From: a bacterium
Lineage (GTDB): Bacteria; Patescibacteriota; Dojkabacteria; JAKAPS01; JAJZLI01
DNA: 64,000 nt
Assembly: GCA_021846685.1 (NCBI GenBank)
Contig: JAJZWL010000004.1
Span: forward strand, 7,899 to 71,898
Reading direction: 5' to 3'
The notes beneath the pieces were generated by a model that had not been told where the DNA came from, did no database searches, and saw only the letters and a program-made list of their open reading frames with translations. This document shows positions 48,347-64,000 of this stretch, in pieces. The translations under genes and the position numbers were made by a program. Every line of letters starts with the position of its first letter. Within the stretch, counting starts at the first letter, position 1.

Positions 48347-48420
48347 GGCCCTGTCGTCTAGTGGCCTAGGACATCAGGTTTTCATCCTGGAAATCGCGGG
48401 TTCGAATCCCGCCAGGGTCA
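48347..48420 (+). tRNA. tRNA-Glu (anticodon UUC)
   Basis: Acceptor GGCCCTG/CAGGGTC (one G-U), D-arm GTC-TAGTGGCCTAG-GAC, anticodon stem TCAGG/CCTGG with loop TTTTCAT (UUC), T-arm GCGGG-TTCGAAT-CCCGC; near-identical in architecture to canonical bacterial tRNA-Glu. Confidence 0.85.
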
Positions 48421-48499
48421 ATTAACGCGACACCCCCACTTGAAACATCCCGAATGTATTGATAGAACCTGCCTACAAGTGCGGTTCATTATCGAAAGT
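48421..48499 (+). repeat. Island repeat copy A: the tRNA-Glu downstream flank supplies the 3' module of the repeat unit
   Basis: 'attaacgcgacaccccc-acttgaaacatcccgaatgtattgatagaacctgcctacaagtgcggttcattatcgaaag'; about 85% identical to the 3' part of copy D (58985-59058). Confidence 0.7.
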
Positions 48500-48550
48500 T
48501 TTACTATTTTAAATCAGTTATTTTATAATTAATAATTAAGTTTATTTATA

Positions 48551-49120
48551 TTAATTCAAATTAGTAAATAGTTTTAAAAATCTTTTTTTATCCCAATCGA
48601 ATATAGCATAATCAGGCATTTTAATTTTTGATTGTATTTCTTTTGTAGGCATATCTAAATAAGAAGAGGTAAATGTTGCTAGCATATTACCATGTGATAC
48701 AATTCCAATGTTTTGAAATTTATTCTCATTCTTTACAATTTCTTCAAGTGCTGTATTAAATCTTCCTAAGGCTTCTTCAAAACTTTCACCTCCATCCATT
48801 CTTTGAACCTTCCCACTATACATTGCTTCTTGTTTTTTTTCATATTCAGTCTTTCCTGAAGTAAATTTTAATGTAAATGAGGTAATTTCTGTTAATCTAT
48901 TATCTGTTTTTACAGGAATAATATTTTTAGAAGCTAAAATCAATGTAGTTTCTAAAGCTTTTGTTTGTAGACTTGTATAAATTATATCTATATCTTTTAT
49001 ATCCTTATTATTCGATAAATCATATGCTCTTTCTATACCTTCTTCAGTAAGATTCCAAAGTACAATAGGAATATTCGGTTCTTGTTGAGTTTTTGAATGC
49101 CTAATAAATGTTATTTTCAT
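48551..49120 (-). CDS. Histidine phosphatase family protein (PGM/SixA branch)
   Basis: 189 aa; 'ITFIRHSKT' (RH-x-x-T catalytic His) and 'VSHGNML' second His. Confidence 0.6.
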   Translation of the reverse strand: MKITFIRHSKTQQEPNIPIVLWNLTEEGIERAYDLSNNKDIKDIDIIYTSLQTKALETTLILASKNIIPVKTDNRLTEITSFTLKFTSGKTEYEKKQEAMYSGKVQRMDGGESFEEALGRFNTALEEIVKNENKFQNIGIVSHGNMLATFTSSYLDMPTKEIQSKIKMPDYAIFDWDKKRFLKLFTNLN

Positions 49121-49137
49121 ATGATATAGACTTACTA

Positions 49138-50557
49138 AGTCTTTTCTAATTGAATAATAACCCTGAAATTAAATTGAGAAATATGAGTTTAGTCTTGTAA
49201 AAAGTATATCATTTTCTTTATTAATTTTCTAATTTATCAAATACTTTTTTTAGTGAGTATATATCTTTTAATATTTCATGTTTTTGAATTTGAACTAGCT
49301 TCATGTATTGATTGTGAGAATATCTAAGTTCTATGTTATCCATTTCTTTAAAAGAAAATTCTTTTTTTAAACTTTTACCTTTAGGATCTATGAATTTTAA
49401 TCTTTGGTATGGGGTCATGTAATCAGACTGTTTATATTTTTTCCTTATTCTTCCTTTATCATCTATTTTAATTTCAGGAAACCCACATGGATGATGATAA
49501 TTTAGATATTCATCATAATAATCTTTAAAAAATGTATCTAGTTGAGGTATATATTTAGAATCTATTGGTGTATATCCCATTTCTTTCCTTATTATTGTGT
49601 TTTTTGTTTCTACCTGGCCATTATCTTCTGATCTAAAGGATCGTGATTTTAACTGTTTTACATGCATTCTATTTAATATATTTGATATTACCTTGTTGAT
49701 GAATTCAGATCCGTTATCTGAATGGAATTCTGTTATTTTAAATGGGAAATATTTTAATATATCTTTTAATACTGGAGCAAGGTATCTTTGAGAGATAGCA
49801 GTTACTATATATATTCTCTGCCACTGTGTATGGTAATCTACTACGTTTATGTAATAGAGCTCTTTATCTTCGTTATTTTCTTTTTGATGTACGCTATCTA
49901 TACTGATGTGTCCAGGTAATCCATCTTTACTGAGAGCTTGTCTTATTCCTATAGCTGCGTTTATCGATGCAGTACCTCTAAGATTGTGAGAATTCTTACC
50001 AAGTAATACATATATGTAGCTAACAGATATATCTTTAATGTTTATATAGCTGGTATCTCTATATATTATATACTCATCAACCAAGATCTTTTTTATTGCA
50101 TTTCCATTTGTCTGATGCAGATCTCTTGTTTCATACACTAAGGCTATATCCTCTCTTGTATATTTATTATGGGAATGTGTTCTTTTATACTTTTGCCTTT
50201 CTATTCTACCTGTATTATGCCAAATAGAGCATAGTTTTTTCACTCTATCTTGGGATAGACACAAAACTATGGATGCATAATCTATGATAGTTCCTTTCTC
50301 TTTCTTTGAAAGCTTAAAGTAATTGTGAAATCTTAAAAGTTTTTCCAGCCACTTGCGTCCTTCAGACTTATCTCTAATCTGAAACTCTAACCCTACTTTT
50401 AAAAGATCATCTATTTGAGCTATACTTAACTTGTGTGAGTTTTTCATAATTATGTTCATTCTAAGCTTATTATGACTACTCACACATCTGTTTGCAATTT
50501 TCAGGGTTACTTTCTAATTATTTATCATCCTCTTTCAGGGTTGTTTTACTGTGGACA
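49138..50557 (-). mobile_element. IS481-like insertion sequence with a 10-bp target-site duplication
   Basis: Exact direct repeat AGACTTACTA at 49128-49137 and 50558-50567 brackets a ~1.4-kb unit; imperfect terminal inverted repeats contain AACCCTGAAA (left) / TTTCAGGGTT (right); single rve-type transposase inside. Confidence 0.6.
49221..50483 (-). CDS. DDE transposase, rve (integrase core) family, IS481-like
   Basis: 420 aa; N-terminal HTH region; core 'EFHSDNGSEF' (the H-x-D-N-G-x-E-F signature of IS3/IS481/retroviral integrase cores). Confidence 0.8.
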   Translation of the reverse strand: MSSHNKLRMNIIMKNSHKLSIAQIDDLLKVGLEFQIRDKSEGRKWLEKLLRFHNYFKLSKKEKGTIIDYASIVLCLSQDRVKKLCSIWHNTGRIERQKYKRTHSHNKYTREDIALVYETRDLHQTNGNAIKKILVDEYIIYRDTSYINIKDISVSYIYVLLGKNSHNLRGTASINAAIGIRQALSKDGLPGHISIDSVHQKENNEDKELYYINVVDYHTQWQRIYIVTAISQRYLAPVLKDILKYFPFKITEFHSDNGSEFINKVISNILNRMHVKQLKSRSFRSEDNGQVETKNTIIRKEMGYTPIDSKYIPQLDTFFKDYYDEYLNYHHPCGFPEIKIDDKGRIRKKYKQSDYMTPYQRLKFIDPKGKSLKKEFSFKEMDNIELRYSHNQYMKLVQIQKHEILKDIYSLKKVFDKLEN

Positions 50558-50631
50558 AGACTTACTATATACAAAATTAACAAAAAATGCTATGATTAAT
50601 TTAATTAAATTAATATTATATATAATAAATT

Positions 50632-51423
50632 ATGGGAGGAATTAATCATCAACCAACTAGTAATATTAGTCTTGCTTTAACTGTAGATGCGGCGCAATCT
50701 CTTACTGAAGGTATGTCTAATCTAATGAGGTCAAATGTTGAAATAGAAAATGTAGTGAAATTAACTGGTTCTAATAGAATTGGAAATGGAAGGTTACACC
50801 TTAAACAGTCCTTACTCTTTATGAGAGCAAGTTTAAATGATTTAGAGTTGGTTCATGATGGAGTTAACCTTATTATTGAAACTCTTTCTAGGGGTGATTA
50901 CAGTCCATTTTCTCCATCTATTATTAATGTGGACGAATTTGTATCAAGGGCTCAAAAAGAAAGTATGTTACCAAAGAGTGATGTGGTTATATGTGCTAGA
51001 GAAGACTGTATAAAAGGTGGTTATGAAGCTATGTTTTCGCATATCATAGAAATGATTGATAGTGCAATATTATCTACCAATTCTTTGATAAATTTGACTA
51101 ATACTATGATTGATGGACCTGAAGGAAAACAAGGTTATTTTTGGTTTACAGTTGAAACTAATAAAAAGCCTTGGAGACAAATTTTTTCTCATACTGTTAC
51201 TATGTGGCAAGATCTCCTTTCATATTGGATGACAAGTGCTCTTATATGCACTGAAGTTCATAATAAAGGGGCTAATATTCCTAGTTTATTTGAAAACATT
51301 TCTAATTTTCTAGATTTCCCAAAATATGATTTTAATAGATTATCTAGGAAAAAAGATATTCAAAAATTAAAATCTAGTTTTAATAGAGATATTACTTACT
51401 CAATAAGTAGAGATATAAAATAA
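50632..51423 (+). CDS. Hypothetical protein (compositionally GC-shifted)
   Basis: 263 aa; no recognisable motif; visibly less AT-rich codon usage than neighbouring core genes. Confidence 0.4.
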   Translation: MGGINHQPTSNISLALTVDAAQSLTEGMSNLMRSNVEIENVVKLTGSNRIGNGRLHLKQSLLFMRASLNDLELVHDGVNLIIETLSRGDYSPFSPSIINVDEFVSRAQKESMLPKSDVVICAREDCIKGGYEAMFSHIIEMIDSAILSTNSLINLTNTMIDGPEGKQGYFWFTVETNKKPWRQIFSHTVTMWQDLLSYWMTSALICTEVHNKGANIPSLFENISNFLDFPKYDFNRLSRKKDIQKLKSSFNRDITYSISRDIK

Positions 51424-51447
51424 GTAATAATATATAAAATATGATCT

Positions 51448-53082
51448 CTATTTGATACTTATTGTTTGTTCTATACTTAGATTTTGAATAAATTCTCTAT
51501 CATGAGAAACAACAAGTAAGGCTCCCCTGTACGATGAAATTGCAGTTTCTAGAGCATCAGTAGTTGTTATATCTAAATTATTTGTAGGCTCATCCAGTAT
51601 TATAATATTAGATTGATTTGCTACTATTCCTGCCAGTATAATTTTTGCTCTTTCTCCTCCACTCAATTTATATGCAGGAGTATATGTAATAGATTGTCTC
51701 TCAATATTGAATTTTACTAATAAATGCATTATTTCATTTTGTGGTATATTGGGGCATAAAGTTCTTAGATTGTCTAGTGCATTGGAGTTCATTAGCGGTA
51801 ATGATTGATTTTGATCAATATATCCTATACGTATGGAAGGGCTTAACCTTATTTGTCCTTCTTTAATAAATTTATTACTTCCAAGAACAGCATTAATAAT
51901 TGAAGTTTTGCCACTGCCATTATTACCAATTAATGCAATTCTTTCTTTTCCATATATATTAAAACTTATTGGCCCAATAGTTGATATAGAATTATTATGA
52001 GTATATTCAATAACTAAATTTTCAACACTAATTAATCTATTGCTAGAATCTAATTTTTCAGGCTCTGTAAATGTGAAATTAAGACTAATTGGTTCTTCAG
52101 GAGGATCTACTCTTTTCACTTGTTCAGATTTAGTTTTTAAAGAAGTTAACCTACTCGATATACTATTGCTAGCCTTTTCCTTACGAAAATTTGTATTTAA
52201 TTTATCATTGTCAGTTCTTGATCTGTTAGAACTTACTGATACAACATTACTATTCATCTTCTTTATTTGCTTTTCAATTTGTTTGCATTTTTTTACATAT
52301 TGATCGTGATGATGGGTGTCAGATTCGTACCTATTTTTTTTAGCCTCGACATATTCATCATATCCAAGAGTATATTCTTGAACACCATTATTTCCTCCAA
52401 GCAACTCAATTATTTTTTTTGATGCATTTCTCAAAAAACGTCTATCATGTGATACTAATACAAAACTTGCACTAGAGTGTTCTATATATGTTTCTAGTAC
52501 TATAATTCCTTCCTGGTCTAAATTATTAGTAGGTTCATCTAATAATAATAAATCATGTTTATCTGCAAAAATAGCAGCGAGCGCAATTTTAGTACGTTGT
52601 CCGCCTGAAATTTCTCCAAGACGAAGATTAGTATCAATTTCTCCCACACCAGCCTTTTTTAATGATTTTTTTAATCTCTGATGAAAATTATATACTTCTA
52701 GTTGAGTATATTTATCTTGAGCTTCTTGATAAATAAGTAGTACATTATCGTCCTCTTTTTCTGTAGATAGTTTATTACAAGCTTCCTCAAATTTATTTCT
52801 AGCTTCTTGTACCCCAGTGGTTTCTTCTATAAAATCATATACGGTATGGTCTAGCCAAGTACTAAAATCTTGTGGCATTAATCCAATTCGTAATCTCTCT
52901 GGATTAATAATTTCTCCACTTGTTGGTTGTATGTCTCCAACTAAAATTTTTAGTAATAAACTTTTTCCTACTCCGTTATCTCCAATCAATCCTATACGAT
53001 CTTTTGGATTAATATTAAAGTCTATATTAGAGAATATTTCTTTTCCATCAGTTTCATAACCGACCTCATGTACATTTAACAT
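51448..53082 (-). CDS. ABC-F family ATPase (tandem ABC domains, no TMD)
   Basis: 544 aa; domain 1 Walker A 'GDNGVGKS', signature 'ISGGQRTKIALA', Walker B 'LLLLDEPTNNLD'; domain 2 Walker A 'GNNGSGKTS', signature 'LSGGERAKIILA', Walker B 'IIILDEPTNNLD'; about 70-aa K/S/R-rich interdomain linker. Confidence 0.8.
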   Translation of the reverse strand: MLNVHEVGYETDGKEIFSNIDFNINPKDRIGLIGDNGVGKSLLLKILVGDIQPTSGEIINPERLRIGLMPQDFSTWLDHTVYDFIEETTGVQEARNKFEEACNKLSTEKEDDNVLLIYQEAQDKYTQLEVYNFHQRLKKSLKKAGVGEIDTNLRLGEISGGQRTKIALAAIFADKHDLLLLDEPTNNLDQEGIIVLETYIEHSSASFVLVSHDRRFLRNASKKIIELLGGNNGVQEYTLGYDEYVEAKKNRYESDTHHHDQYVKKCKQIEKQIKKMNSNVVSVSSNRSRTDNDKLNTNFRKEKASNSISSRLTSLKTKSEQVKRVDPPEEPISLNFTFTEPEKLDSSNRLISVENLVIEYTHNNSISTIGPISFNIYGKERIALIGNNGSGKTSIINAVLGSNKFIKEGQIRLSPSIRIGYIDQNQSLPLMNSNALDNLRTLCPNIPQNEIMHLLVKFNIERQSITYTPAYKLSGGERAKIILAGIVANQSNIIILDEPTNNLDITTTDALETAISSYRGALLVVSHDREFIQNLSIEQTISIK

Positions 53083-53199
53083 AATGTCATAATTATATCA
53101 TATAATACGGTTAAATATCAGCGATTGTACGAGGTAAATAGTTTTAAAGCTTAGAAAGGAAGGTGTTTATATGGGATACTCATATTTTTTGATATTTAT

Positions 53200-53313
53200 A
53201 ATCCAGACTAAAAGCGGTTCGATCTGAGGCATCTTAAGGTCAATTAACAAGGTATCCCCTATGAAAACATCTCAAATGTATTGATATACTAGGAAACATG
53301 CGCGGTTCGAAAT
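53200..53313 (+). repeat. Island repeat copy B (full unit)
   Basis: 'aatccagactaaaagcggttcgatctgaggcatcttaaggtcaattaacaaggtatcccctatgaaaacatctcaaatgtattgatatactaggaaacatgcgcggttcgaaat'. Confidence 0.75.
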
Positions 53314-53372
53314 AGCAACATGACCAATACTTGCAATTAGTCGTATTATGTAGTATAGTCGAGTATAGTTAA

Positions 53373-54452
53373 TTGTACTACATTATGGATAATCACGGAA
53401 GATTTAATAAGAGACTAGAAAGCATTACATCAGATATATATCTAAAGATATCTAAAACCGATGAGCTCAAAGGTATGTGGATTGGAGGCATGAAATTAAG
53501 TCCTCAAACACTTGGTAGACTTAAACAGTCGGCCCTAATAACCTCAACAGGAGCTTCAACCAGAATTGAAGGATCAGGACTATCTGATGAAGAGATTGAG
53601 AAAGTTATTAAAGGCATAAAAATTCAAAATTTTAGAAATAGAGATGAGCAAGAAGTGAAAGGATACTTCGAGCTTCTAGAAAATGTATTTAATAATTTTA
53701 ATACTTTAACTTTCAATGAAAACTGTATTAAATCTTTTCACAATGAACTTCTAAAATATGTAGAAAAGGATCAATCACATAAAGGAGAATATAAAAATCT
53801 ACCTAACCATGTTGAGCTAATAGATGAACCTAATAATATTGTAGAGGTGATTTTTGAAACTACACCTCCATATTTAGTTTCTCACCAAATGCATTCTCTT
53901 GTAGAATGGACTCAAAATGCTTTACTCGCGAAGAAATATCACCCATTATTAGTGATTGGAAATTTTATTGTTGAATTTTTGAAGATTCATCCGTTTCAGG
54001 ATGGAAATGGTAGGTTATCAAGAATATTAACTAGTTTTTTATTATTAAAGGAGGGATATAAATATGCAGAATATAGCTCTCACGAAAAGTTGATAGAAGA
54101 AAATAAACAAGAATATTACCTCTCTTTGATGAAAAGTCAAAAAACTTTCAACAAAAAAATGGAAAATATTCTACCTTGGATGAATTTTTTTATAGATATT
54201 ATGATTAAGCAAGCTCAATATGCTGTTGATTTTGGATCAAATGATAACATAGAATCTTTACTTACTAAGATACAGTTGAAAGTTTGGGAATATATATCTA
54301 AAGTAGGGGAAGCAAGTCCTAAAGATATATCTCAAAACACTGATATAGGAAGGGATACGCTAAGGCAGGTATTAAATAAATTAATTAAGTTAAAGAAAGT
54401 TGAAAAATTGGGACAAGGAGTGGGAACTTACTATAGAATAATAAAAGATTGA
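53373..54452 (+). CDS. Fic-family AMPylase (class II, N-terminal inhibitory helix) with C-terminal winged-HTH
   Basis: 359 aa; canonical Fic motif 'HPFQDGNGRLSR'; upstream 'STRIEG' fits the S/T-x-x-x-E-G inhibitory-helix motif; C-terminal HTH-like 'DISQNTDIGRDTLRQVLNKLIKLKKV'; ends with TGA. Confidence 0.85.
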   Translation: MYYIMDNHGRFNKRLESITSDIYLKISKTDELKGMWIGGMKLSPQTLGRLKQSALITSTGASTRIEGSGLSDEEIEKVIKGIKIQNFRNRDEQEVKGYFELLENVFNNFNTLTFNENCIKSFHNELLKYVEKDQSHKGEYKNLPNHVELIDEPNNIVEVIFETTPPYLVSHQMHSLVEWTQNALLAKKYHPLLVIGNFIVEFLKIHPFQDGNGRLSRILTSFLLLKEGYKYAEYSSHEKLIEENKQEYYLSLMKSQKTFNKKMENILPWMNFFIDIMIKQAQYAVDFGSNDNIESLLTKIQLKVWEYISKVGEASPKDISQNTDIGRDTLRQVLNKLIKLKKVEKLGQGVGTYYRIIKD

Positions 54453-54491
54453 AAAAATTCATCATTTTAAATATACTTTTATCAATTTAAT

Positions 54492-54546
54492 AATCCAAAC
54501 TAAAAGCGGTTCGATCTGAGGCACCTTAAGGTCAATTAACGCGACA
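54492..54546 (+). repeat. Island repeat copy C (5' module plus start of 3' module)
   Basis: 'aatccaaactaaaagcggttcgatctgaggcaccttaaggtcaattaacgcgaca'; contains the 10-bp palindrome ACCTTAAGGT (54523-54532). Confidence 0.75.
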
Positions 54547-54817
54547 AATTCACTAAAATCATATATGACAATAAAAACAAATCGTATTTAATTCACATAG
54601 AGTATTTATAATTTCATGATTGTTTTACAATTATTTTTTAATACCATATATTGGTCAGACAAGACTTTTTGTATAAGTCCACATATATTTATTGTTGTCA
54701 AACCATCAAGATTGAGAATGAAAATTAACAAAAACAGGAGAGTTTTCTATAGTCTTTATTGGTATTCTCATATATGTAAGTTTCTCTGGTTTTATGGTAT
54801 AATTCAGATTAATAATT

Positions 54818-55873
54818 ATGGAAACACAAGAGTCATTAGTATATCATCAAAATGAATTAAAAATTTATGAACCCTCTGTTCTTCAAGATTTACAGATGAG
54901 GGTGTTAGATAGCCCGAGTGAGGATACTTCTGTTTGGTTTCCAATTCCTAGAGAAGGGGAGGTTTCTTATGAATCTAGAATTGATATAGATAGTATAGAT
55001 ATTACCACAGAATATGTCGATGCACTAAATAATTATTTAGATAGGGCATTAGATGATTTTACTGGATTTAGCAAACCTAAATGTGATGGTTTTGTTGTCG
55101 CACTGTCTGGTGGTTTAGATTCAGCAGTTTCAACAGAATTACTTAACAAATATTGTAAAGCCAAGGGGTGTAATTTAAAAATATTGGTAATGGGGGAAGG
55201 AGACCATAATGAATATATCGATAGATATTTAGGAACTCCTGCAGAATGGATAGATATCCAGTATGCAAAATTAATGTGTCAAGAAAATAATTTAGATTTT
55301 GAATATTTAGATATAACTAGAGACATTAAAGCATTAAGAGATAGATATACAAAAAAATGGGCTATAAGTGGACAATTACCAAGATTGAGAGCAAATCATT
55401 TATACGCAATGGCTGAGGAACATGATTTAATATCTGTTGGAACTACTAATGGATCAGAATACATTTTGGCTGCATTTTCTACAGGTGGTCCAGCCGGAAA
55501 TATTGCACCATTATTAGATTTATATAAAACTGAAGTATATGCCATAGCTCGTGATATTGGAATTCCTAAATATATTCAGGAGAGAATGCCTTTAATAAAT
55601 GAATTAAATCTACCAGACAATAGTTTTTATGGCAGAACAGTAGATTCAACTATTTTAGATCCAATAATTAGAAGACTATGGTTTCATAAACAAAACCCAA
55701 TTAAGGTAGCAAAAGAATTAGGTCATTCCGAAAGATGGGTTCGAGATATTGATGAAAAGAGAATAAAGGGAGAATCCTGCAGAAGAAATTACAAAGGTCT
55801 TTTAATTAATAGAGGTTTTCATTTTGAAGATTTATCCCCAGATTTGTTTGTTGATAGGTCATATTTTATATAG
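54818..55873 (+). CDS. NAD+ synthetase (NadE)-like PP-loop ATP pyrophosphatase
   Basis: 351 aa; PP-loop 'VVALSGGLDSAVS'; NadE-like 'ISGQLPRLRANHLYAMAEEHDLISVGTTNGSEYILAAFSTGGPAGNIAPLLDLYKTEVYAIARDIG'; ~60-aa N-terminal extension. Confidence 0.65.
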   Translation: METQESLVYHQNELKIYEPSVLQDLQMRVLDSPSEDTSVWFPIPREGEVSYESRIDIDSIDITTEYVDALNNYLDRALDDFTGFSKPKCDGFVVALSGGLDSAVSTELLNKYCKAKGCNLKILVMGEGDHNEYIDRYLGTPAEWIDIQYAKLMCQENNLDFEYLDITRDIKALRDRYTKKWAISGQLPRLRANHLYAMAEEHDLISVGTTNGSEYILAAFSTGGPAGNIAPLLDLYKTEVYAIARDIGIPKYIQERMPLINELNLPDNSFYGRTVDSTILDPIIRRLWFHKQNPIKVAKELGHSERWVRDIDEKRIKGESCRRNYKGLLINRGFHFEDLSPDLFVDRSYFI

Positions 55874-55879
55874 ATTATA

Positions 55880-56728
55880 ATGAAAATATCATTCTTCCAA
55901 TACTTACCAGAATTTAATAATTTACAAGAGAATATAGCAAATATAGTATCTTTAATTCAAAAGAATAAAGAAAATATACTTAAAACTGATATATTAGTTT
56001 TTCCAGAATATTCTTTTTCTGGACCATTAAATTTAGATAATTTTGAGAATTATAAAAAACAAATAACTGATATGTCAGTTATTTCTATTTTAGAGAAAAT
56101 ATCCAAAGAATTAAAAGGTGTTACCATAATATTTGGTTCAATGATTTTGCCCATGAAAAATAAAACATTCGCAAATACATCTATGGTATTTAAAAATGGT
56201 AAGATTGTTGGAACATATGACAAAAAAGCATTGATATACAATGAAAATTATATTTGTACTGCATCTAAAAAATACTTAAAGTTCAATGTGGGTAAATATA
56301 AAATTGGGTTAGCTATATGTTGGGATCTAATTCTTCCAGAAGTGTTTAGAAATTATGTAAATGAAATTGATCTTATTATAATTCCAAGTTTTTGGGGGAT
56401 AGGAGGTAATTTATTGCAATCAAAGTATAAGTTTTCATTAGAAAAAAAATATTATAGACAATTGTGTGTATCTAGAGCATATGAGAATGCATTTGCTTTA
56501 TTATTTGTAAATTCAGTAGGAGAATATAAATCTTCTTTTTATACAGATAGAATGATGGGCGGAAGTTTAGCTATTATGCCTCCGTTGGGTGAGGTATATT
56601 TTTCGAATGACAAGAATCCCAATAATATTCATATTATTGAAATGGATTTTAAATTTTTAAAAGAATATAGAGAATATTATGCAACTGATAAAGACTTTAA
56701 ATATTATAAATCTAAAAATATTTTCTAA
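55880..56728 (+). CDS. Carbon-nitrogen hydrolase (nitrilase superfamily; glutaminase-type)
   Basis: 282 aa; catalytic triad context 'VFPEYSF' (Glu), 'TYDKKALIY' (Lys), 'GLAICWDLILPE' (Cys). Confidence 0.7.
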   Translation: MKISFFQYLPEFNNLQENIANIVSLIQKNKENILKTDILVFPEYSFSGPLNLDNFENYKKQITDMSVISILEKISKELKGVTIIFGSMILPMKNKTFANTSMVFKNGKIVGTYDKKALIYNENYICTASKKYLKFNVGKYKIGLAICWDLILPEVFRNYVNEIDLIIIPSFWGIGGNLLQSKYKFSLEKKYYRQLCVSRAYENAFALLFVNSVGEYKSSFYTDRMMGGSLAIMPPLGEVYFSNDKNPNNIHIIEMDFKFLKEYREYYATDKDFKYYKSKNIF

Positions 56729-57790
56729 ATGGCTAAATATATTTTTTATAAACAAAAATTAATTGATAATATAAATATGCTAAAAGATGCTTATAAATCT
56801 AAAGGTATAAATTTTAAGATTTATTATTCAGTAAAAACCAATCCTTCTGATTGTGTTTTAGAAATTATTAACAATGAAAATTGTAATTTTGAAGTTGTAT
56901 CTTATGATGAATGGCTTTCAGTAAAAAAATATAATCCTACAACTTTAGTACTTAATGGACCTTCTAAAGATATAAAAATACTTAAAAATATATTTGACTG
57001 TAATGTGAAAGAGCTATATTTTAATATAGATAATGATACAGATTTTGACATTATAGATAGTATTGATAATATATATACCGATAAATTAAAACTTGGTGTA
57101 AGAGTATATCTTGATAAAACTGGCATATGGAATAGATTTGGATTTGATATTGATTCTCCTAGATTAGTTCAAATTATAAAAAAATATCGAGATAAGATTA
57201 ATGGTTTCCATTTTCATTTTTCAACAAACAATTTTAATTTTGAAAATTATCTTCAGATTATGACTAAAATAAATAATTTAATAGATAAATACCAATTAAA
57301 CTTAGAATATATAGATATTGGAGGAGGGTTTCCTGGTGCAAGTGAAGAGATGTATTCTAATATTATATACAATAAATTACCTGATTTAATAAAAACAATG
57401 ATGCCTGATAATATTACAATTATATCTGAGGTAGGTAGAAATCTAATTGAAGATACTTTTAATATGAAAACGAGTGTTATTTCTAAGAAGAAAATATCTG
57501 AAGACAAATTTGATATAGTTATTGATACAAATATACTACATTTTCCATGTTATTGGGAGAAAAAATTTGGTATTGACTATATAGTTAAAAATGCTAATAA
57601 AGATCAAAAGCCTATAAATATAAATATTTTTGGAAACTCTTGTATGCAAATTGATAAAATAGCAGATAATTTTTTGATAGCTTGTGAACCAAATATAAAT
57701 GATAATGTTATAATATCTAAAATAGGAGCATATTCTGTCTCGCAGGCTTCTAATTTTATTACAAAAATACCAAATATAGTAATTTCATAA
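56729..57790 (+). CDS. PLP-dependent decarboxylase, fold III (Orn/DAP/Arg decarboxylase family)
   Basis: 353 aa; 'YYSVKTNP' PLP-Lys motif, 'GFHFHFSTN', 'IDIGGGFPGA' Gly-rich motif, 'EVGRNLIED', conserved C-terminal Cys 'GNSCMQID'. Confidence 0.7.
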   Translation: MAKYIFYKQKLIDNINMLKDAYKSKGINFKIYYSVKTNPSDCVLEIINNENCNFEVVSYDEWLSVKKYNPTTLVLNGPSKDIKILKNIFDCNVKELYFNIDNDTDFDIIDSIDNIYTDKLKLGVRVYLDKTGIWNRFGFDIDSPRLVQIIKKYRDKINGFHFHFSTNNFNFENYLQIMTKINNLIDKYQLNLEYIDIGGGFPGASEEMYSNIIYNKLPDLIKTMMPDNITIISEVGRNLIEDTFNMKTSVISKKKISEDKFDIVIDTNILHFPCYWEKKFGIDYIVKNANKDQKPININIFGNSCMQIDKIADNFLIACEPNINDNVIISKIGAYSVSQASNFITKIPNIVIS

Positions 57791-57799
57791 ATTAATAAA

Positions 57800-58879
57800 A
57801 TGTCAAATTTTTTAGTAACAGATATAAAAGTCATAGATAGTCCTCAGGCTGGAATAGGCGTAGCTAGGTGTTTAAAAACTTTGGGTCATAAAGTATATGG
57901 GATTGACGATACTCCATTTGTAACAAACTCAGATTTATTTGAAGCTGTTTTTGTTATAGAAGAGATTAGAACTCTTAATTTAGATAATTTAGTAAAAAAA
58001 TTAATTAATATAAAAAATTTATATCATATTGATTACATTATTCCTTGTTATGATGAAACATCAATCCTTCTTTCTTATATAAAAGATAAATTGAATTATA
58101 TTGGAATACAACTTATTGCTCCAGATATTGAAGTGATAAAGAGATTAAAAAAAGAAAATTTGGTAAATACATTTTCTGGTATTAATAATAAGCAATTATT
58201 GATACCAGAAACAAAAGTAATATCTTCTATTAAAGAAGCTGAAAATTATGCTATGCAAATTAATTATCCCCTTGTTGTTAAAGGAATGACTAAAGGTGTA
58301 AAAATTGTAGAAAATAGCACAGAATTGCCTAGTGCAATAAAATATATATGTAATATTTGGAATAATGGTGAAATTCATTGTATTATTCAAAAGTTTATAC
58401 AAGGGAAATCAATAAATGCATTATTATCCTATAAAGATGAAAGAATAGTTTCTTATTTAGAAATGGAAAAGATAGCATTAGATTCTAATGGTGCAACTTG
58501 GTTTGGGAAGCTCACTTCAGATAAAAATATATTTAATGTTATAGCTGATTTTTGCAAGTATATAAAATTAAATAATTCTATAATTGAAATAGAAACGATT
58601 TTAACAGAACAAGGAAAGTATTATGTTTATGAAATTAATTATAGACCACCGGCTTGGATCTATTCCCCAGCATTAAATGGACAAAATTTCTTAGATATAT
58701 TCTTAAATCCACAAAAAACAGTAATATTTAATAATATAAATGCCTTTTTTGGTAGAGAATCTAATGACTTTGTGAAACCTTTAGAAGATATCTCTCAATA
58801 TGAAGATTTACAATTTTATGCTAAAGGAGCTGCATATAAAAATGATAATCAAAAGTATCCTTCTGAAATTATGATTTGA
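57800..58879 (+). CDS. ATP-grasp family ligase
   Basis: 359 aa; 'YPLVVKGMTKGVKIV', 'IIQKFIQGKSINAL', 'YYVYEINYRPP' (E-x-N Mg-binding motif). Confidence 0.55.
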   Translation: MSNFLVTDIKVIDSPQAGIGVARCLKTLGHKVYGIDDTPFVTNSDLFEAVFVIEEIRTLNLDNLVKKLINIKNLYHIDYIIPCYDETSILLSYIKDKLNYIGIQLIAPDIEVIKRLKKENLVNTFSGINNKQLLIPETKVISSIKEAENYAMQINYPLVVKGMTKGVKIVENSTELPSAIKYICNIWNNGEIHCIIQKFIQGKSINALLSYKDERIVSYLEMEKIALDSNGATWFGKLTSDKNIFNVIADFCKYIKLNNSIIEIETILTEQGKYYVYEINYRPPAWIYSPALNGQNFLDIFLNPQKTVIFNNINAFFGRESNDFVKPLEDISQYEDLQFYAKGAAYKNDNQKYPSEIMI

Positions 58880-58942
58880 ATAAGAATATTAAATTAGTGT
58901 AATAATTGGTGGTTGATTGTCAAATATTTTTACTAATTTCAC

Positions 58943-59058
58943 AATCCAAACCAAAAGCGGTTCGATCTGAGGCACCTTAAGGTCAATTAACGCGACACCC
59001 TCTGTAGAAACATCTCGAATGTATTGATGGAACTTGCTTACAAGTGAGATTTGAAATG
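58943..59058 (+). repeat. Island repeat copy D (full unit)
   Basis: 'aatccaaaccaaaagcggttcgatctgaggcaccttaaggtcaattaacgcgacaccctctgtagaaacatctcgaatgtattgatggaacttgcttacaagtgagatttgaaatg'. Confidence 0.8.
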
Positions 59059-59072
59059 CTAATGGAAAATTA

Positions 59073-59366
59073 TTAATTATAAACTTTTTTGTTTCCTGAG
59101 TGTCCACCTATGGTCAAAGCTATGATAGTAGTTCTGTTATCAAAAAAATCCCAAATAATCCGTAGATCTCCAGTTACTCTTGAACTATATCTTATACCAT
59201 AATTTCTTGTATTTACTTTATGTGTTTTTAGGTTACTAGAGAAAGGGTTTTCTGTAAGTATTATGATTTTTTGATCAATTATTTTTTTTAAATTTGTATT
59301 TCCTTTTACATATTTTCTATAAGATCTTTCAAATTCTTTTGTTATAGTAAAATCATATATTTTCAT
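59073..59366 (-). CDS. RelE/ParE-superfamily type II toxin (mRNA interferase-like)
   Basis: 97 aa; 'TGDLRIIWDFFDNRTTIIALTIGGHS' matches the RelE/YafQ C-terminal pattern; 6 nt downstream of the putative antitoxin gene on the same strand. Confidence 0.55.
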   Translation of the reverse strand: MKIYDFTITKEFERSYRKYVKGNTNLKKIIDQKIIILTENPFSSNLKTHKVNTRNYGIRYSSRVTGDLRIIWDFFDNRTTIIALTIGGHSGNKKVYN

Positions 59367-59372
59367 ATAGTC

Positions 59373-59663
59373 TTATTTACTTATTTTGTTAAGATGATCT
59401 TTGATCTGGCTTGTAGATTTCAATCTTGTTACTCTTCCTGTTTCAATATCATCTAATGCTCTTCCAATACTTTCTTCGGTTTCTAAGTCAACCATAGGAA
59501 TATCTTTATATAATGGTTTAATATCTTCAATTACTAGGTGCCTTACATATTCAGGAGTAGAGATGCCTAACTGTTCAAGTCTGATCTTTATTAATTCAAA
59601 TAAAGGTTGTGGAAATCCCACTTGTCTTACAACTGTATTTTGTGTTTGATTATTTTTACTCAT
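59373..59663 (-). CDS. Putative antitoxin of the RelE-like toxin
   Basis: About 97 aa from 'MSKNNQT' (the track ORF is extended to 59702); small, upstream of and co-oriented with the toxin. Confidence 0.4.
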   Translation of the reverse strand: MSKNNQTQNTVVRQVGFPQPLFELIKIRLEQLGISTPEYVRHLVIEDIKPLYKDIPMVDLETEESIGRALDDIETGRVTRLKSTSQIKDHLNKISK

Positions 59664-59746
59664 AATTATATAAATGTATTGTAGCACATGTGTAACAAGC
59701 ATTCAACATACATCTATAACTATTTGTATATTTCTATTACTTTAGT

Positions 59747-59839
59747 GATCCAAACTAAAAGCGGTTCGATCTGAGGCAACTTAAGGTCAATTAACTCGAT
59801 ATCACATGTTTGAAACGTTCCAAATATATTGATGAAATC
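59747..59839 (+). repeat. Island repeat copy E
   Basis: 'gatccaaactaaaagcggttcgatctgaggcaacttaaggtcaattaactcgatatcacatgtttgaaacgttccaaatatattgatgaaatc'. Confidence 0.75.
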
Positions 59840-59989
59840 TTATTTTCATAGGTATATTCTGATATTTTTCTTTATTTTTACTAATTATCCTTATCAATTA
59901 TTGATGAAGAATTTAGAGTGTCATATCACTATCGTCAACCTGAATTCTCCGATATTGACAATTATTGGATAATATATCATAATTAGTAC

Positions 59990-61243
59990 ATGGAAGAAAC
60001 ATTATATATGCAAAATCCTTGGTGGATGAATAGAGAATTTAATATAGGGATAATAAGAAAACAATCTCTTGATAAATTAAAAAGTATGGCTTTAAATAAT
60101 AAAGTTACAATGTTACTTGGAGGGAGACGTGTAGGAAAAACTTTTTTGATATATCAATATATAGATTATCTTTTAAAATCAAGAATAAAAGAAAAAAATA
60201 TACTATATTTACTTTTAGATACAAGGGCATTTGAAGATATAACAATTGTTAATTTACTAAGAGAATATAGAAAAATTCATAATCTTAGTATAGATGAGAA
60301 AATATATATTTTCTTAGATGAGATTCAATATAAAGATTCATGGGAGCAAGAAGTAAAGAATCTTTATGATACTGAGCCAAATATACAAATAGTTTTATCT
60401 GGATCTGCAAGTTTTAAAATTCATACAAAAACATCTTTTCTAACAGGTAGATATGAAATTATGAATTTATATCCTTTAAATTTTTTAGAATGGATAGGCA
60501 TTAGAGGTATTAAAATTCTTCCATCTGAGAGTTATAAATATCAAAATGAATTAAATGAATATTTATTTAAAGGAGGATATCCAGAATATGTTATTAAAGA
60601 GGATCCACAATATTTTCCTAATCTTGTAGACAGTATTGTATATAAAGATTTTGTAGAATATTTTAATATTAAAAATTTAGATATTGTTAAAGACTTATTT
60701 AAATTACTTTCAGATAGGACAGGGTCTCATTCAAGTCTTTCAAAAATAGGAAATATTCTGTCTATAAGCAAAGAAACAGTGAGGGAATATATATATGCTT
60801 TAAAGGGAAGTTTTTCTGTATATGAATTACAACGTTATTCTTCAAGCAGGAATGAGAGAATATATTTTGCTAAAAAATACTATTTAAATGATAATGGATT
60901 ACAATTTAATCAATCTGGTAAATTTAATAAAGGTCAATCTGCAGAGAGAACTTTATTTGATTATTTATATAAAAAATATTCAGATTCAATTTATTTCTAT
61001 TATGATAATAAAGTAGAAGTAGATTTTATATTGAAATATCATGATAGATTAGAACTGATAGAGTCTAAATACATAAATGATATTTCTGATTTTAATCCAA
61101 AATCTCTTCTAAAGGCAATGAAATCATTAGATGTAACTAATGCTACTGTTATCACAGAATCTATTGAAGAAGAATTAGTATTTGATGAAAAAAAGATAAT
61201 ATTTATTCCTTTATGGAAAGTTTTGGTAAAGCAAATTATATAA
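59990..61243 (+). CDS. AAA+ ATPase of the AAA_14/DUF4143 type
   Basis: 417 aa; Walker A 'LLGGRRVGKTFL', Walker B 'IFLDEIQY'; C-terminal domain of DUF4143-like length. Confidence 0.7.
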   Translation: MEETLYMQNPWWMNREFNIGIIRKQSLDKLKSMALNNKVTMLLGGRRVGKTFLIYQYIDYLLKSRIKEKNILYLLLDTRAFEDITIVNLLREYRKIHNLSIDEKIYIFLDEIQYKDSWEQEVKNLYDTEPNIQIVLSGSASFKIHTKTSFLTGRYEIMNLYPLNFLEWIGIRGIKILPSESYKYQNELNEYLFKGGYPEYVIKEDPQYFPNLVDSIVYKDFVEYFNIKNLDIVKDLFKLLSDRTGSHSSLSKIGNILSISKETVREYIYALKGSFSVYELQRYSSSRNERIYFAKKYYLNDNGLQFNQSGKFNKGQSAERTLFDYLYKKYSDSIYFYYDNKVEVDFILKYHDRLELIESKYINDISDFNPKSLLKAMKSLDVTNATVITESIEEELVFDEKKIIFIPLWKVLVKQII

Positions 61244-61303
61244 ATTATTCATAATTTTTTAATTAGATATAGTAAAAATCTAGATTACTTTTATCATTTT
61301 AAT

Positions 61304-61350
61304 AATCCAAACTAAAGGGGTTAGATCTATGGCACACCAAGGTCAAGTGA
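61304..61350 (+). repeat. Island repeat copy F (degenerate)
   Basis: 'aatccaaactaaaggggttagatctatggcacaccaaggtcaagtga'; shares the extended left context 'cttttatca-ttt-aataatcc' with copy C. Confidence 0.55.
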
Positions 61351-61475
61351 TGCTACAATTCTGGATCAAATAGTATGTTATTAAATGGTGCTCAAAGACA
61401 AACTATTGGAGCTTTTGAAAAAAGGTATTTGAAAAATAGGGATTGATCAATAATTCTATCTTTGGAATAGGAGTT

Positions 61476-62171
61476 TTATCTTCTAGCTAATTTGGATGCC
61501 ACATCCAACATTCTTCTTCCATATCTTTTATTTTTATTATCTCTACAAACAATATCAACTGCGCTCTTATAAGGAATTACGACTCTTCTTCGAAGTGACG
61601 CTATATAAGTTCTGTTGTTAGGATAAAATATACTATGTTTTCCTAATATACTAAAAACTTTTTCACCTGTATCTAATAGTTTATAACTTCTTTCAGATTT
61701 TATATCATCCTCACATGATGATATATAATGTTCTATTTTAGAGCGTGAATACTCATCCATTGCTTCAAATTTTTCAGTATCTCGGTACTCGCCCAATATT
61801 TCTCTGGGCTTATCTACTCTCACATCTCCAGACATATCTTTACCTTCACTTTTGAAAAAAGATAACAATTTTTTAACCCTCTCTTTATTGTGGAAAGCCA
61901 CTATTTGTATTCTACTATCTTCTCCATTTTTAAACCTAGATAGATATAATCTTCTTAACAGTCTTAACTCGATATTGGTGTCAAATGCCCAGTCTCTAAA
62001 AATGAAATATTGTGGGTTTATGCCTAGATCTAAAAGAACAGAAGCTAAAACTTCCGAATATTCTTGACACTTAGGATTATCGCTATCTTCTATATTTGCT
62101 GCAGTTGATAGTATGTATGGTTTTCTTGAATCTGGTGCTAAATGCCATAAGAGTGCAACAGATCCTGCCAT
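61476..62171 (-). CDS. Hypothetical protein (GC-shifted, Arg-rich C-terminus)
   Basis: 231 aa; start at ATG 62171 with an in-frame stop 30 nt upstream; uses CGA/AGG/GCC-type codons rare elsewhere in the window. Confidence 0.4.
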   Translation of the reverse strand: MAGSVALLWHLAPDSRKPYILSTAANIEDSDNPKCQEYSEVLASVLLDLGINPQYFIFRDWAFDTNIELRLLRRLYLSRFKNGEDSRIQIVAFHNKERVKKLLSFFKSEGKDMSGDVRVDKPREILGEYRDTEKFEAMDEYSRSKIEHYISSCEDDIKSERSYKLLDTGEKVFSILGKHSIFYPNNRTYIASLRRRVVIPYKSAVDIVCRDNKNKRYGRRMLDVASKLARR

Positions 62172-62562
62172 TGATCTTAAAATGCATCCATACCAGCTTC
62201 ATCCTTCCAAGGATCTCCTTTCCCAAGAACCATTATTGCATCAGGTAATGATTCTTGCAAAGGTTCGTTGTTGTAGACTTGTTCTATTTCCATGGGGGAA
62301 ATTATATCATGTCATATAGTTCTTAACAAAATAATTACTAAAAATTTTGTTATTCATTAGAGCTTAATATTCTATAGCTACAATATTATTAGTTTATATA
62401 AATAAAAAATGCACGAATTTCGCTATAATAAAGATTAAAGATTCAAGATCCTTTCAAAATACTTAAAGGTGTTGGATTAAAGGGTAGTGATACTTTTATA
62501 GATAAGGTTAATTTAATTACCTATTTGATTTTAATATTAAAAATATCTAGAATATTGTATAT

Positions 62563-63510
62563 ATGGGAGTTAAATATATAGATCATAGGAATCCTGATAT
62601 ATTGAATCTTAAAGAAATTGAAGCATATTTTAACTATCTTGATTTTACTGTTATATCATCTTCTCAATCATGGAGATATGTAACTGGGTTTTTAGAAAAT
62701 GATAATAAAGAGTATTTTTTTAAAGTTTCAACTAATTCAGCCTTAAGTGAACGTTTAAAAACTGAAATTGAATGGGAAGAGATAAGAGATAGAGAAGATA
62801 TAAAACTATCTTGTGATTTTCCACAAATATATAAAACTGGATTTTATAAAGATATACTACTTTATATTGTTTTTGAGAAGGTAAATGGAGTTCCTCTTGC
62901 AAACTCTACTAAAAATGATGACAAAAGTATGCAGATATTTATAAGTCATATAAAAGATGTTGTCAAAATAATACATTCTATTATGAGTATTAATTCAGAT
63001 TCATTACTTCCTAAGGATAGGAAGATGAATATGAGTATAGCCGATTTTATAGTTGGATCCTATAAAAAATATCTTAATGAGATGCATAATAGAATTGATG
63101 TGAAATCTTTAGAAAAAATCATAGAAGCTGGGATTCAATATACTACAGTTGCTCCAGCTCATTGTGATTTTGTTCCAGAGCATCTCTTAATTGAAAATAA
63201 TACTAAACTGTATGTTGTTGATAATGAAGCATTTTCATTACACCATGTAAAATTTTATGATTTAGCATATATGTATCATAGATTATATACAAAATACTGT
63301 AGACCTGATATTGCAAATAAATTACTAAATCTATATGAATCAGAATATCCTCTTTCTAAGCAAGAGATTCTTGCATTTAGGGCTATCTTGGGTGTTAGAC
63401 TTATAGGTGGATTTTTAGATGCAGAAAATGATAAGGGTTTTTCTGGAGGTACAAAAATTGAAATGCAATTATCTATGCGAGAAAATTTGGAGAAAGGAAA
63501 AATTATATAG
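62563..63510 (+). CDS. Protein-kinase-like phosphotransferase (APH/choline-kinase fold)
   Basis: 315 aa; 'VAPAHCDFVPEHLLIE' (H-x-D catalytic loop) followed by 'YVVDNEAFS' (DFG-equivalent Asp). Confidence 0.5.
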   Translation: MGVKYIDHRNPDILNLKEIEAYFNYLDFTVISSSQSWRYVTGFLENDNKEYFFKVSTNSALSERLKTEIEWEEIRDREDIKLSCDFPQIYKTGFYKDILLYIVFEKVNGVPLANSTKNDDKSMQIFISHIKDVVKIIHSIMSINSDSLLPKDRKMNMSIADFIVGSYKKYLNEMHNRIDVKSLEKIIEAGIQYTTVAPAHCDFVPEHLLIENNTKLYVVDNEAFSLHHVKFYDLAYMYHRLYTKYCRPDIANKLLNLYESEYPLSKQEILAFRAILGVRLIGGFLDAENDKGFSGGTKIEMQLSMRENLEKGKII

Positions 63511-63547
63511 TTTGTAATATTTTTTTATCAACTTCTGCTTAATTAAA

Positions 63548-63772
63548 CTATTTTGAATGATTAGGATCTAATTGATTTTTTAATCTCCTAATATGTTCTA
63601 TTATTTCACGCCTAATCCTTTCTTCTTGTAATTTTTCAAGTGCATCTATTTCTTCCGGTTTTTGATATCCAAGATCTCCAGCAACTTTTGGAGATACACC
63701 ATCCACGACTCCTCCGAATTGATTCGCCATTACATTATCCCAATATACTCTTTTTAAATCTTCATTTCCCAT
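63548..63772 (-). CDS. Hypothetical small protein
   Basis: 74 aa; 'LEKLQEERIRREIIEHIRRLKNQ' charged helix; no motif. Confidence 0.3.
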   Translation of the reverse strand: MGNEDLKRVYWDNVMANQFGGVVDGVSPKVAGDLGYQKPEEIDALEKLQEERIRREIIEHIRRLKNQLDPNHSK

Positions 63773-64000
63773 AGTATTTTATGATTATATTATACTATAT
63801 TTAAAGAAAAATAACTATACTATAAGATGCCTTCTGTTATGAGTAAACTTTAAAAAAGATGACAGTATTCAAAATATAACTTGAAAGAAAAATTAGAAAA
63901 TTTAGAGAAAAACAATGATATACCTTAATTGTCGAATCTCAGATAAACTATTGGCTTCATCACCTTTTCAGTAATCTGATGATAAGAAAAAATCTGATAA

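Follow-up and report, generated by a model that had tools for sequence, protein, structure and literature searches.

A tRNA-Glu-anchored array of small gene cassettes without integrase genes in a Dojkabacteria genome

Organisation of the locus

We analysed a stretch of 64,000 nt from a genome of the Patescibacteria lineage Dojkabacteria (contig JAJZWL010000004.1, hereafter the window), in which a tRNA-Glu(UUC) gene is followed by direct repeats that separate small gene cassettes. The tRNA gene (48347-48420, plus strand) is intact according to ARAGORN and Rfam and is the presumed primary attachment site of this array. The window genome has a G+C content of ~26%. Upstream of tRNA-Glu the genes are of housekeeping type (seryl- and glycyl-tRNA synthetases, the mraZ-murE/F cell-wall cluster, uvrC, recO, PmbA/TldD), and an AI-2E transporter and a cupin GPI are encoded just upstream of the array head.

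The tRNA gene ends with GGGTCA (48415-48420), and this core is common to every cassette junction. Five repeat units, all on the same strand, carry GGTCA cores at 53238-42, 54530-34, 58981-85, 59785-89 and 61341-45. A sixth core (48416-48420, plus strand) consists of the last five bases of tRNA-Glu itself. The units start 1292, 4451, 804 and 1557 bp apart from each other. A 32-nt pattern of the 5' module (left arm) occurs four times and is not found in any of 100 shuffles, and GGTCAATTAAC occurs five times with 0.05 occurrences expected. Directly 3' of tRNA-Glu, the region 48416-48486 shows 86% identity to 58981-59051. Of the five internal units, only those at 53243-, 58986- and 59790- have the long 3' module (right arm); in the units 54535- and 61346- just ~10-15 nt of it remain. 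Moreover, the repeat copy 61286-61357 is a diverged variant. A preliminary description of the locus, made from the letters alone, had listed six same-strand copies with both modules. Five units plus the tRNA core stand, while the long 3' module has to be restricted to three of them.

Searches with a profile of the unit (nhmmer, including --max) returned no copy in window positions 1-48300 or in the 12 kb past the last unit, and none outside the island in L002, L014, L015 and L031, contigs from the set of relatives introduced below. Since no further copy is detected even with filters off, the repeats occur only within the island. This holds for the inspected ~110 kb of the window genome. The repeat is hence confirmed as real, non-random and local to the island, in agreement with the earlier expectation that it is not dispersed genome-wide. 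A generic repeat of the repetitive extragenic palindromic (REP) or miniature inverted-repeat transposable element (MITE) type, dense here by chance and unrelated to cassette mobility, would also be short, non-coding and always intergenic, as is the case here. Nevertheless, such an origin is very improbable. Outside the island, ~95 kb are free of copies, all copies share one orientation, the units form no hairpins, and neither terminal inverted repeats nor target duplications were seen on reading them. In addition, the core also marks the limits of cassettes in other genomes.

We aligned 20 distinct junctions drawn from all loci. They consist of a left arm of ~50-60 nt, the core AAGGTCA, a variable hexamer, usually GYGACA, and an optional right arm of ~70 nt, in this order. 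The left arm is strongly conserved, with the consensus (T)TTTATCAATTTAATAATCCAAACTAAAAGCGGTTCGATCTGAGGCAnCTTAAGGTCA, also written TTTTATCAATTTAATAATCCAAACTAAAAGCGGTTCGATCTGAGGCAnCTTAAGGTCA, and is 85-100% identical over ~50 nt between unrelated cassettes. The hexamer after the core falls into two classes, A[T/G]T[A/G]A[C/T] or CCAAA[C/T]. The right-arm pattern reads GYGACACCCC..., with a conserved AATGTATTGAT at about +40 and GGTTYGAAATRC at the end. In most junctions, but not all, GGTCA-N7-YGACA forms an imperfect dyad.

The left arm had been described as an imitation of the tRNA-Glu 3' end. Beyond the core this is unsupported. Identity between arm and tRNA amounts to 5-7 nt ((A)AGGTCA), and apart from (A/G)GGTCA only a GGTTCGA heptamer is common to both, with a spacing that differs by 5 nt. 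The local alignment lies within the shuffle distribution (p ~0.1), and no tRNA 3' half shows significant similarity to the remainder of the arm.

Folding of five units as DNA, on one or both strands, gave no structure better than shuffles (z -0.6 to +1.4). Rfam (gathering and E-value modes) returned no match in the region besides the tRNA itself, and about 11 right arms inspected by eye showed no consistent covariation. Based on the lack of both a fold signal and an Rfam match, the sites are linear double-stranded DNA, neither attC-like hairpins nor RNA genes. These findings already contradict an integron or a cluster of attC sites lacking integron-integrases (CALIN), where the repeats would be attC sites recombined by IntI as folded single strands. 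Short cassettes that often encode toxin-antitoxin (TA) pairs, sites of ~60-120 nt and an array without integrase are indeed reminiscent of CALINs (PMC4889954). However, the GTTRRRY/RYYYAAC pair was not seen in the aligned units, nor was the R''/R' GTTRRRY symmetry. Gene orientation is mixed, and the head of the array is a tRNA end instead of an attI beside intI. We therefore give this explanation virtually no credence.

The cargo was annotated with Pfam, NCBIfam and PADLOC. Unit 1 (48421..53242) is a composite of 4.8 kb with the hexamer ATTAAC, a right arm of ~70 nt (48421-48495), the cargo, and left arm plus core (53181-53242). It contains a His_Phos_1 gene (48551-49120, minus strand; Pfam), an IS481-like insertion sequence (IS; 49138..50557, minus strand), a gene for a 263-aa hypothetical protein (50632-51423, plus strand) and a gene for a ribosomal-protection-type ABC-F protein (51448-53082, minus strand; NCBIfam). 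The rve transposase gene of the IS spans 49221-50483 (Pfam rve; the NCBIfam IS481 match is below cut-off). The ABC-F protein scores 394.5 with a ribosomal-protection cut-off of 380 bits in NCBIfam, and is thus the product of an antibiotic-resistance-like gene in a genome of the Candidate Phyla Radiation (CPR).

Cassettes 2 and 3 are on the plus strand. Cassette 2 (53243..54534, 1292 bp) comprises a right arm, a Fic/SoFic-like gene (53373-54452, plus strand; PADLOC SoFic, 1e-36), and left arm plus core (54473-54534). Cassette 3 (54535..58985, 4451 bp) starts with a truncated right arm (ATTAACGCGACAA only) and ends with left arm plus core (58924-58985). In between lie a 79-aa open reading frame (ORF) and a compact four-gene operon for NAD-synthase-like, CN-hydrolase, pyridoxal phosphate (PLP) decarboxylase and ATP-grasp proteins (54616-58879, plus strand). 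The NAD-synthase-like enzyme is of the PP-loop type, and the best, weak match of the PLP decarboxylase is FslC/LysA; the scores of all these enzymes lie far below the family cut-offs. Judging from its gene content, the operon may make or modify a small metabolite with an amide linkage.

Cassette 4 (58986..59789, 804 bp, minus strand) is the shortest. It carries a right arm (58986-59055), a gene for a YafQ/RelE-type toxin (59073-59366, minus strand) with the antitoxin gene beside it (59373-59702, minus strand), and left arm plus core (59728-59789). Cassette 5 (59790..61345, 1556 bp, plus strand) consists of a right arm (59790-59840), a gene for an AAA_14+DUF4143 ATPase (59990-61243, plus strand; PADLOC candidate PDC-S01, 1e-67) and a variant left arm of its own with the core (61286-61345). 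Both for this AAA ATPase and for the glycyl-tRNA synthetase of the window genome (60-62% identity), the nearest relatives with a name carry Patescibacteria annotations, which suggests a host from a deep lineage of this group. Taken together, the cargo is made up of TA, defence-candidate and ABC-F genes in mixed orientation, with cassettes that have their own promoters. Of the partition into six cassettes proposed beforehand, cassettes 2-5 are indeed delimited by junctions, whereas the first and sixth are composite or undelimited. The proposed gene functions were confirmed by the profiles, except for an 'APH-like kinase' (see below).

Empty site and variation between strains and species

Relatives are represented by contigs labelled L0xx, with L002 used to extend beyond the window end. 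L031 belongs to a distant relative whose AI-2E orthologue is 53% identical to that of the window. Here the order is GPI, AI-2E and tRNA-Glu, followed after 15 nt by dnaJ-MFS-marR, with no arm of any kind. The dnaJ-MFS-marR genes, which represent the ancestral right flank, are found in the window genome ~20 kb downstream, from ~68200 (L002 extension). Hence the entire stretch from 48421 to ~68200 is inserted DNA. As the empty site lacks it, the right arm beside the tRNA has to be part of the first cassette and not a native tRNA trailer. The similarity of the 3' module to the sequence downstream of the tRNA, noted before, is real, but that sequence is owned by the cassette.

The distal island DNA within the window (61346..64000) is without further recognisable site, and the insertion runs on beyond it. 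It contains a 231-aa gene (61476-62171, minus strand), a 315-aa gene (62563-63510, plus strand) and a 74-aa gene (63548-63772, minus strand). The 231-aa gene has no profile match, and the same is true for the 315-aa gene, which is the one formerly taken for the kinase. In L017, L018 and L020 the 231-aa gene and an upstream 38-aa ORF are one single ORF of 271 aa; judging from this comparison, a frameshift or stop has probably disrupted the window gene. Further downstream, a gene for a PQQ-repeat beta-propeller between the 74-aa gene and yfhO (L002 11523-12860) is largely deleted in L035 (5547-5588). Thus the distal part of the island, which has no sites, is variable too.

Closely related strains differ exactly at the junctions. 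The flank of L021 is 98.4% identical to that of the window, but this contig has two extra cassettes with a 357-aa and a 346-aa gene, each with a terminal left arm. They sit precisely between ...GGGTCA and the right arm with His_Phos that adjoin the tRNA in the window. Beyond them only this right arm and His_Phos (96%) are common with unit 1, followed by different content. L018 contains one additional VapBC cassette between cassettes 3 and 4, L019 shows HicAB at the cassette 3/4 position, and in L035 a RelB/YafQ(+) cassette on the opposite strand substitutes for cassette 4. The neighbouring cassettes of all three contigs share 98% identity with the window. Insertions are thus observed at the tRNA end (L021), as the preliminary description had assumed, and at internal junctions as well (L018, L019, L035).

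L019 is special in another respect. At 174-320 of this contig (sample ERZ27237466) a tRNA-Lys(CUU) is directly followed by a right arm (AGTAAC GTGACACCCC...AATGTATTGAT...) and the HicAB cassette, after which cassettes 4-5-6 continue with 98.8% identity to the window. This could be a second tRNA anchor, a rearrangement between two arrays, or a different genome. A simple assembly chimera is disfavoured because the arms of L019 are alleles not seen elsewhere.

A second species (species 2; L001, L023-L027 and L036) is represented by five independent assemblies from several samples and assemblers. Its flanks are 73.9% and its AI-2E protein is 70% identical to the window. In contrast, the AAA cassette shows 98.8% and the Fic cassette 94.4% identity (L001), so that sharing of cassettes across species clearly exceeds that of the flanks. 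The order of the array differs as well: it is tRNA|AAA|Fic in species 2 and tRNA|1|Fic|3|4|AAA in the window, and the AAA cassette adjoins tRNA-Glu of species 2 directly. The third unit of species 2 (L001 2101-3248 = L023 5717-6864) carries a second AAA_14/DUF4143 gene split into ORFs of 101 aa and 250 aa, a pseudogenised paralogue beside the intact mobile copy. In a third species (L032 6453-7030; SRR14320033) a tRNA-Glu(CUC) is followed by a non-coding mini-unit of ~260 nt, a decayed left arm with the core TTTTA instead of GGTCA, and an AAA cassette 85% identical to that of the window.

Whole cassettes between the repeats therefore differ among related genomes, as had been anticipated (L031, L021, L018, L019, L035 and species 2). 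Cassettes of 98.8% identity across 74% flanks, together with arrays that differ between 98%-identical strains, indicate that movement has been recent.

Further observations concern the AAA gene family. Compared to L001, the AAA cassette of the window has an insertion of ~73 nt in the right-arm/promoter region (59838-59910), bounded by duplicated ATTGATGAA. Just upstream of the AAA gene (59947-59969) lies a palindrome similar to TCTCCGATTTTGACAATTATCGGAGA. In L034 an AAA_14/DUF4143 gene of 65% identity is embedded in an operon for ATP synthase, with direct repeats of ~45 nt on both sides of the gene that include the palindrome TCTCCGATTTTGACAATTATCGGAGA (9940-9990 and 11270-11320). The palindrome may be an operator or another mobility signal of this gene family. 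These distant homologues (P0016/L034) were considered as members of arrays and rejected, as they are not located in such arrays.

Breakpoints and candidate mechanism

The AAA cassette is informative with regard to the point of exchange. Its right arm (TYGATATCACA...) is joined to the tRNA, to the arm of cassette 4 or to the RelB/YafQ arm, three left partners that are unrelated to each other, and in all three contexts the left boundary is identical, always GGT[C/T]A plus hexamer. The variant left arm GGGGTTAGATCTATGGCACACCAAGGTCA travels with the cassette. Similarity between the AAA cassettes of species 2 and the window ends within ~10 nt past the core. Such fixed boundaries place the exchange point in the ~6-8 bp after GGTCA.

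Could homologous recombination alone explain the array? The arms would then be portable homology for natural transformation and RecA, with no dedicated site-specific recombinase. The near-identity of left arms between unrelated cassettes fits this idea, as does the mosaicism of right arms between species. Moreover, competence and pilus genes are reported to be prevalent in Patescibacteria (PMC12455944), and conspecific donors with common flanks could yield gains and losses at the strain level. However, the junctions tRNA|AAA (species 2) and tRNA|X1 (L021) share just 5-7 nt with any arm, and in the case of tRNA|AAA these are AAGGTCA (7 nt) alone, a stretch of insufficient length for homologous recombination. 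The empty site of L031 is armless, so the first insertion cannot be homologous. Hence homologous recombination cannot account for primary insertions. In addition, the breakpoints of the AAA cassette fall at one position in three contexts, and arms of 50 nt with 85-90% identity are poor substrates for RecA. We thus consider homologous recombination as sole process unlikely.

Instead, the region is probably a tRNA-Glu-anchored array of small (0.8-4.8 kb), integrase-less cassettes that behave as independent units of site-specific integration. Serial site-specific integration at the tRNA 3' end, as put forward before, is supported by the empty site, L021 and species 2.

A recombinase gene was searched for with Pfam and PHROGs. 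None (Phage_integrase, Resolvase, Recombinase) is encoded by ~13 distinct cassettes, and with PADLOC added no recombinase appeared among all cassette ORFs and hypothetical proteins, the 357-aa and 346-aa genes proximal to the tRNA in L021 among them. Upstream of the array, 48 kb contain no member of an integrase family, and neither do the ~20 kb that follow the last unit. The latter include the 10 kb beyond the window end, a region in which the preliminary description had suggested looking for an integrase. The rve protein was considered as mobiliser and dismissed: it is encoded by an IS flanked by a target duplication, and in L011 this IS is precisely missing. A phage or plasmid carrier was not recognised, with no relatives of Fic or AAA in IMG/VR. 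Likewise, no unit contains remnants of integrases, relaxases or coupling proteins, an absence that is still compatible with an old origin.

Such an origin would imply that the units are decayed remnants of autonomous elements minus their integrase, similar to cis-mobilizable elements (CIMEs), in an array that is now static. Tandem accretion with decay is the usual history of tRNA-linked islands (PMC5704250), tycheposon remnants provide a precedent (10.1101/2020.12.28.424599), and the distal units (window 61286, L032 arms) are visibly decayed. Nevertheless, this scenario is rather improbable, since ~13 different units, down to 0.8 kb, are without any integrase fragment. The left arms are no displaced tRNA copies and yet are conserved across unrelated cassettes, which points to selection on the site. 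Neither the almost identical cassettes in species with diverged flanks nor the unlike arrays of close strains are expected from a static array.

For an array of mobile cassettes we propose the following mechanism. Because no recombinase is found in the cassettes or on either side of them, the enzyme would have to be encoded elsewhere and act in trans on the cassette junctions. A tyrosine integrase with arm-type binding is the most likely class, given that heterobivalent tyrosine integrases use an attP similar to the two-armed site of ~110-130 bp; alternatively, the host might provide an Xer-like enzyme in trans. Strand exchange would take place in the ~6-8 bp after GGTCA. Recombination of two adjacent junctions would release a circle, whose joined left arm, core and right arm would form an attP-like site. 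For re-insertion of the circle, the tRNA end and every existing junction could serve as targets, consistent with the tRNA-proximal (L021, L001) and internal (L018) insertions. Transfer between cells might occur by DNA uptake or an unknown vector.

Several points weigh against this interpretation. A recombinase was found nowhere in the inspected part of the window genome. Neither an excised circle nor a read across an empty junction was detected, and the one small contig tested as circular form (L036, 1755 bp) turned out to be an ordinary chromosomal arrangement, tRNA-Glu|AAA of species 2. Within units 1 and 6 there is variation that involves no site. It includes the IS, which is polymorphic for presence or absence, flanked by a ~10-bp target duplication AGACTTACTA and missing in L011, an inversion in L011, the L021 content past His_Phos, and the 231-aa versus 271-aa gene. 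Hence the island is shaped by additional processes. Comparison of species shows mosaic right arms, with the Fic right arm of L001 resembling the tRNA-proximal arm of the window, so homologous exchange between repeats happens too. The GYGACA half-site is not universal, as the AAA, Fic and distal units differ, and the proposed dyad is only tentative. Finally, every sequence compared is a metagenome assembly, in which contigs frequently break at repeats. The L011 inversion comprises the segment corresponding to window ~48790-50766.

A strict left-arm pattern matched one other genome among the GTDB species representatives. JGI metagenomes gave 0 matches with the strict or the degenerate pattern, and IMG/VR 0 matches with the degenerate one. 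These zeros say little, as the exact patterns are too strict, judging from the JGI contig L021 that does carry diverged copies of the repeat.

A broader interpretation is more tentative. The array may be an instance of an undescribed gene-capture platform of Patescibacteria, with a tRNA 3' end (Glu-UUC, Glu-CUC, possibly Lys-CUU) as primary site and a two-armed, double-stranded cassette site of ~110 nt. A recombinase dedicated to this task, with its gene elsewhere in the genome or on a transient element, would insert, excise and shuffle integrase-less cassettes with TA, defence-candidate and resistance-like cargo, and spread them across species. Patescibacteria (CPR) genomes are tiny. If the interpretation is correct, a site of ~110 nt per gene packet would explain how streamlined cells cheaply trade defence, TA and resistance-type genes. 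It would also be a second, structurally different answer to the problem solved by integrons, the capture and shuffling of single genes at one chromosomal site. Conserved arm, core GGTCA and hexamer provide a concrete handle to trace the responsible recombinase, and possibly a compact site-specific insertion system aimed at the end of a tRNA gene.

Comparison with known systems

A targeted, not exhaustive, literature search retrieved no description of such arrays in Patescibacteria. A survey of horizontal transfer in this group covers islands, prophages and single-gene transfers, and leaves integrases, recombinases and tRNA attachment sites unmentioned (PMC12455944). In our best reading, the logic of the array is that of tandem accretion (CIME, pseudo-SCC) and its scale that of integron cassettes and CALINs, while the combination seems to be new.

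CIMEs are defined as integrase-less units flanked by att sites, with the integrase supplied in trans (PMC5704250). In accordance with this definition, the cassettes are located between two junction sites and contain no recombinase or transfer gene; that the sites are functional is deduced from comparative mobility. Insertion at a tRNA 3' end, older units pushed distally and the lack of an own integrase are further similarities to tandem accretion. In contrast, CIMEs are decayed integrative and conjugative (ICEs) or integrative and mobilizable elements (IMEs) of several kb or more, usually one or two per locus. Here we find at least 5-6 units per array of ~13 kinds, down to 0.8 kb, with no ICE or IME remnants in array units. 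Moreover, the repeats of CIMEs consist of the target gene's displaced end, whereas the conserved arm described here does not reproduce the tRNA end.

CALINs are clusters of attC sites without integrase (PMC4889954). The array resembles them and integrons by short, mostly single-function, TA-rich cassettes with one site each, by preferred insertion at the head and by shuffled order. It differs by non-folding sites without attC consensus, a tRNA end instead of attI, promoters of the cassettes' own in either orientation, and the fact that no IntI was found.

Further parallels exist to the staphylococcal cassette chromosome (SCC). SCC elements target rlmH and are roughly 10 kb or larger, and one or more elements of an island carry the genes for the Ccr serine recombinases. 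Pseudo-SCC elements depend on recombinases supplied in trans. In composite SCC islands, e.g. one of 40 kb with three elements (10.1101/336396), cassettes are likewise arranged in tandem at the 3' end of one conserved gene with short direct repeats between them, and some elements (pseudo-SCC) are without recombinase genes. Unlike in SCC, no unit of the present array contains a recombinase, and the sites are two-armed with ~110 nt.

Tycheposons are cargo elements at few tRNA genes of the streamlined Prochlorococcus genome, stacked and with partial tRNAs between them; each of them encodes a recombinase of the tyrosine or large serine type and, as a rule, replication genes (10.1101/2020.12.28.424599). 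With these and with Islander islands the array has in common the insertion at a tRNA 3' end that leaves the tRNA intact, with the junction right after the last base in three species and in L031. The differences are that no integrase is borne by the elements and that the separators are not displaced tRNA fragments. REP and MITE repeats are distinguished from our units by dispersed copies, none of which occur in the scanned stretches, and by folding, which is not significant here. Finally, pdif modules (28-bp XerC-spacer-XerD sites, typically alternating) are apparently set apart by length and orientation, as the sites of the tRNA-Glu array are ~110 nt long and all direct.

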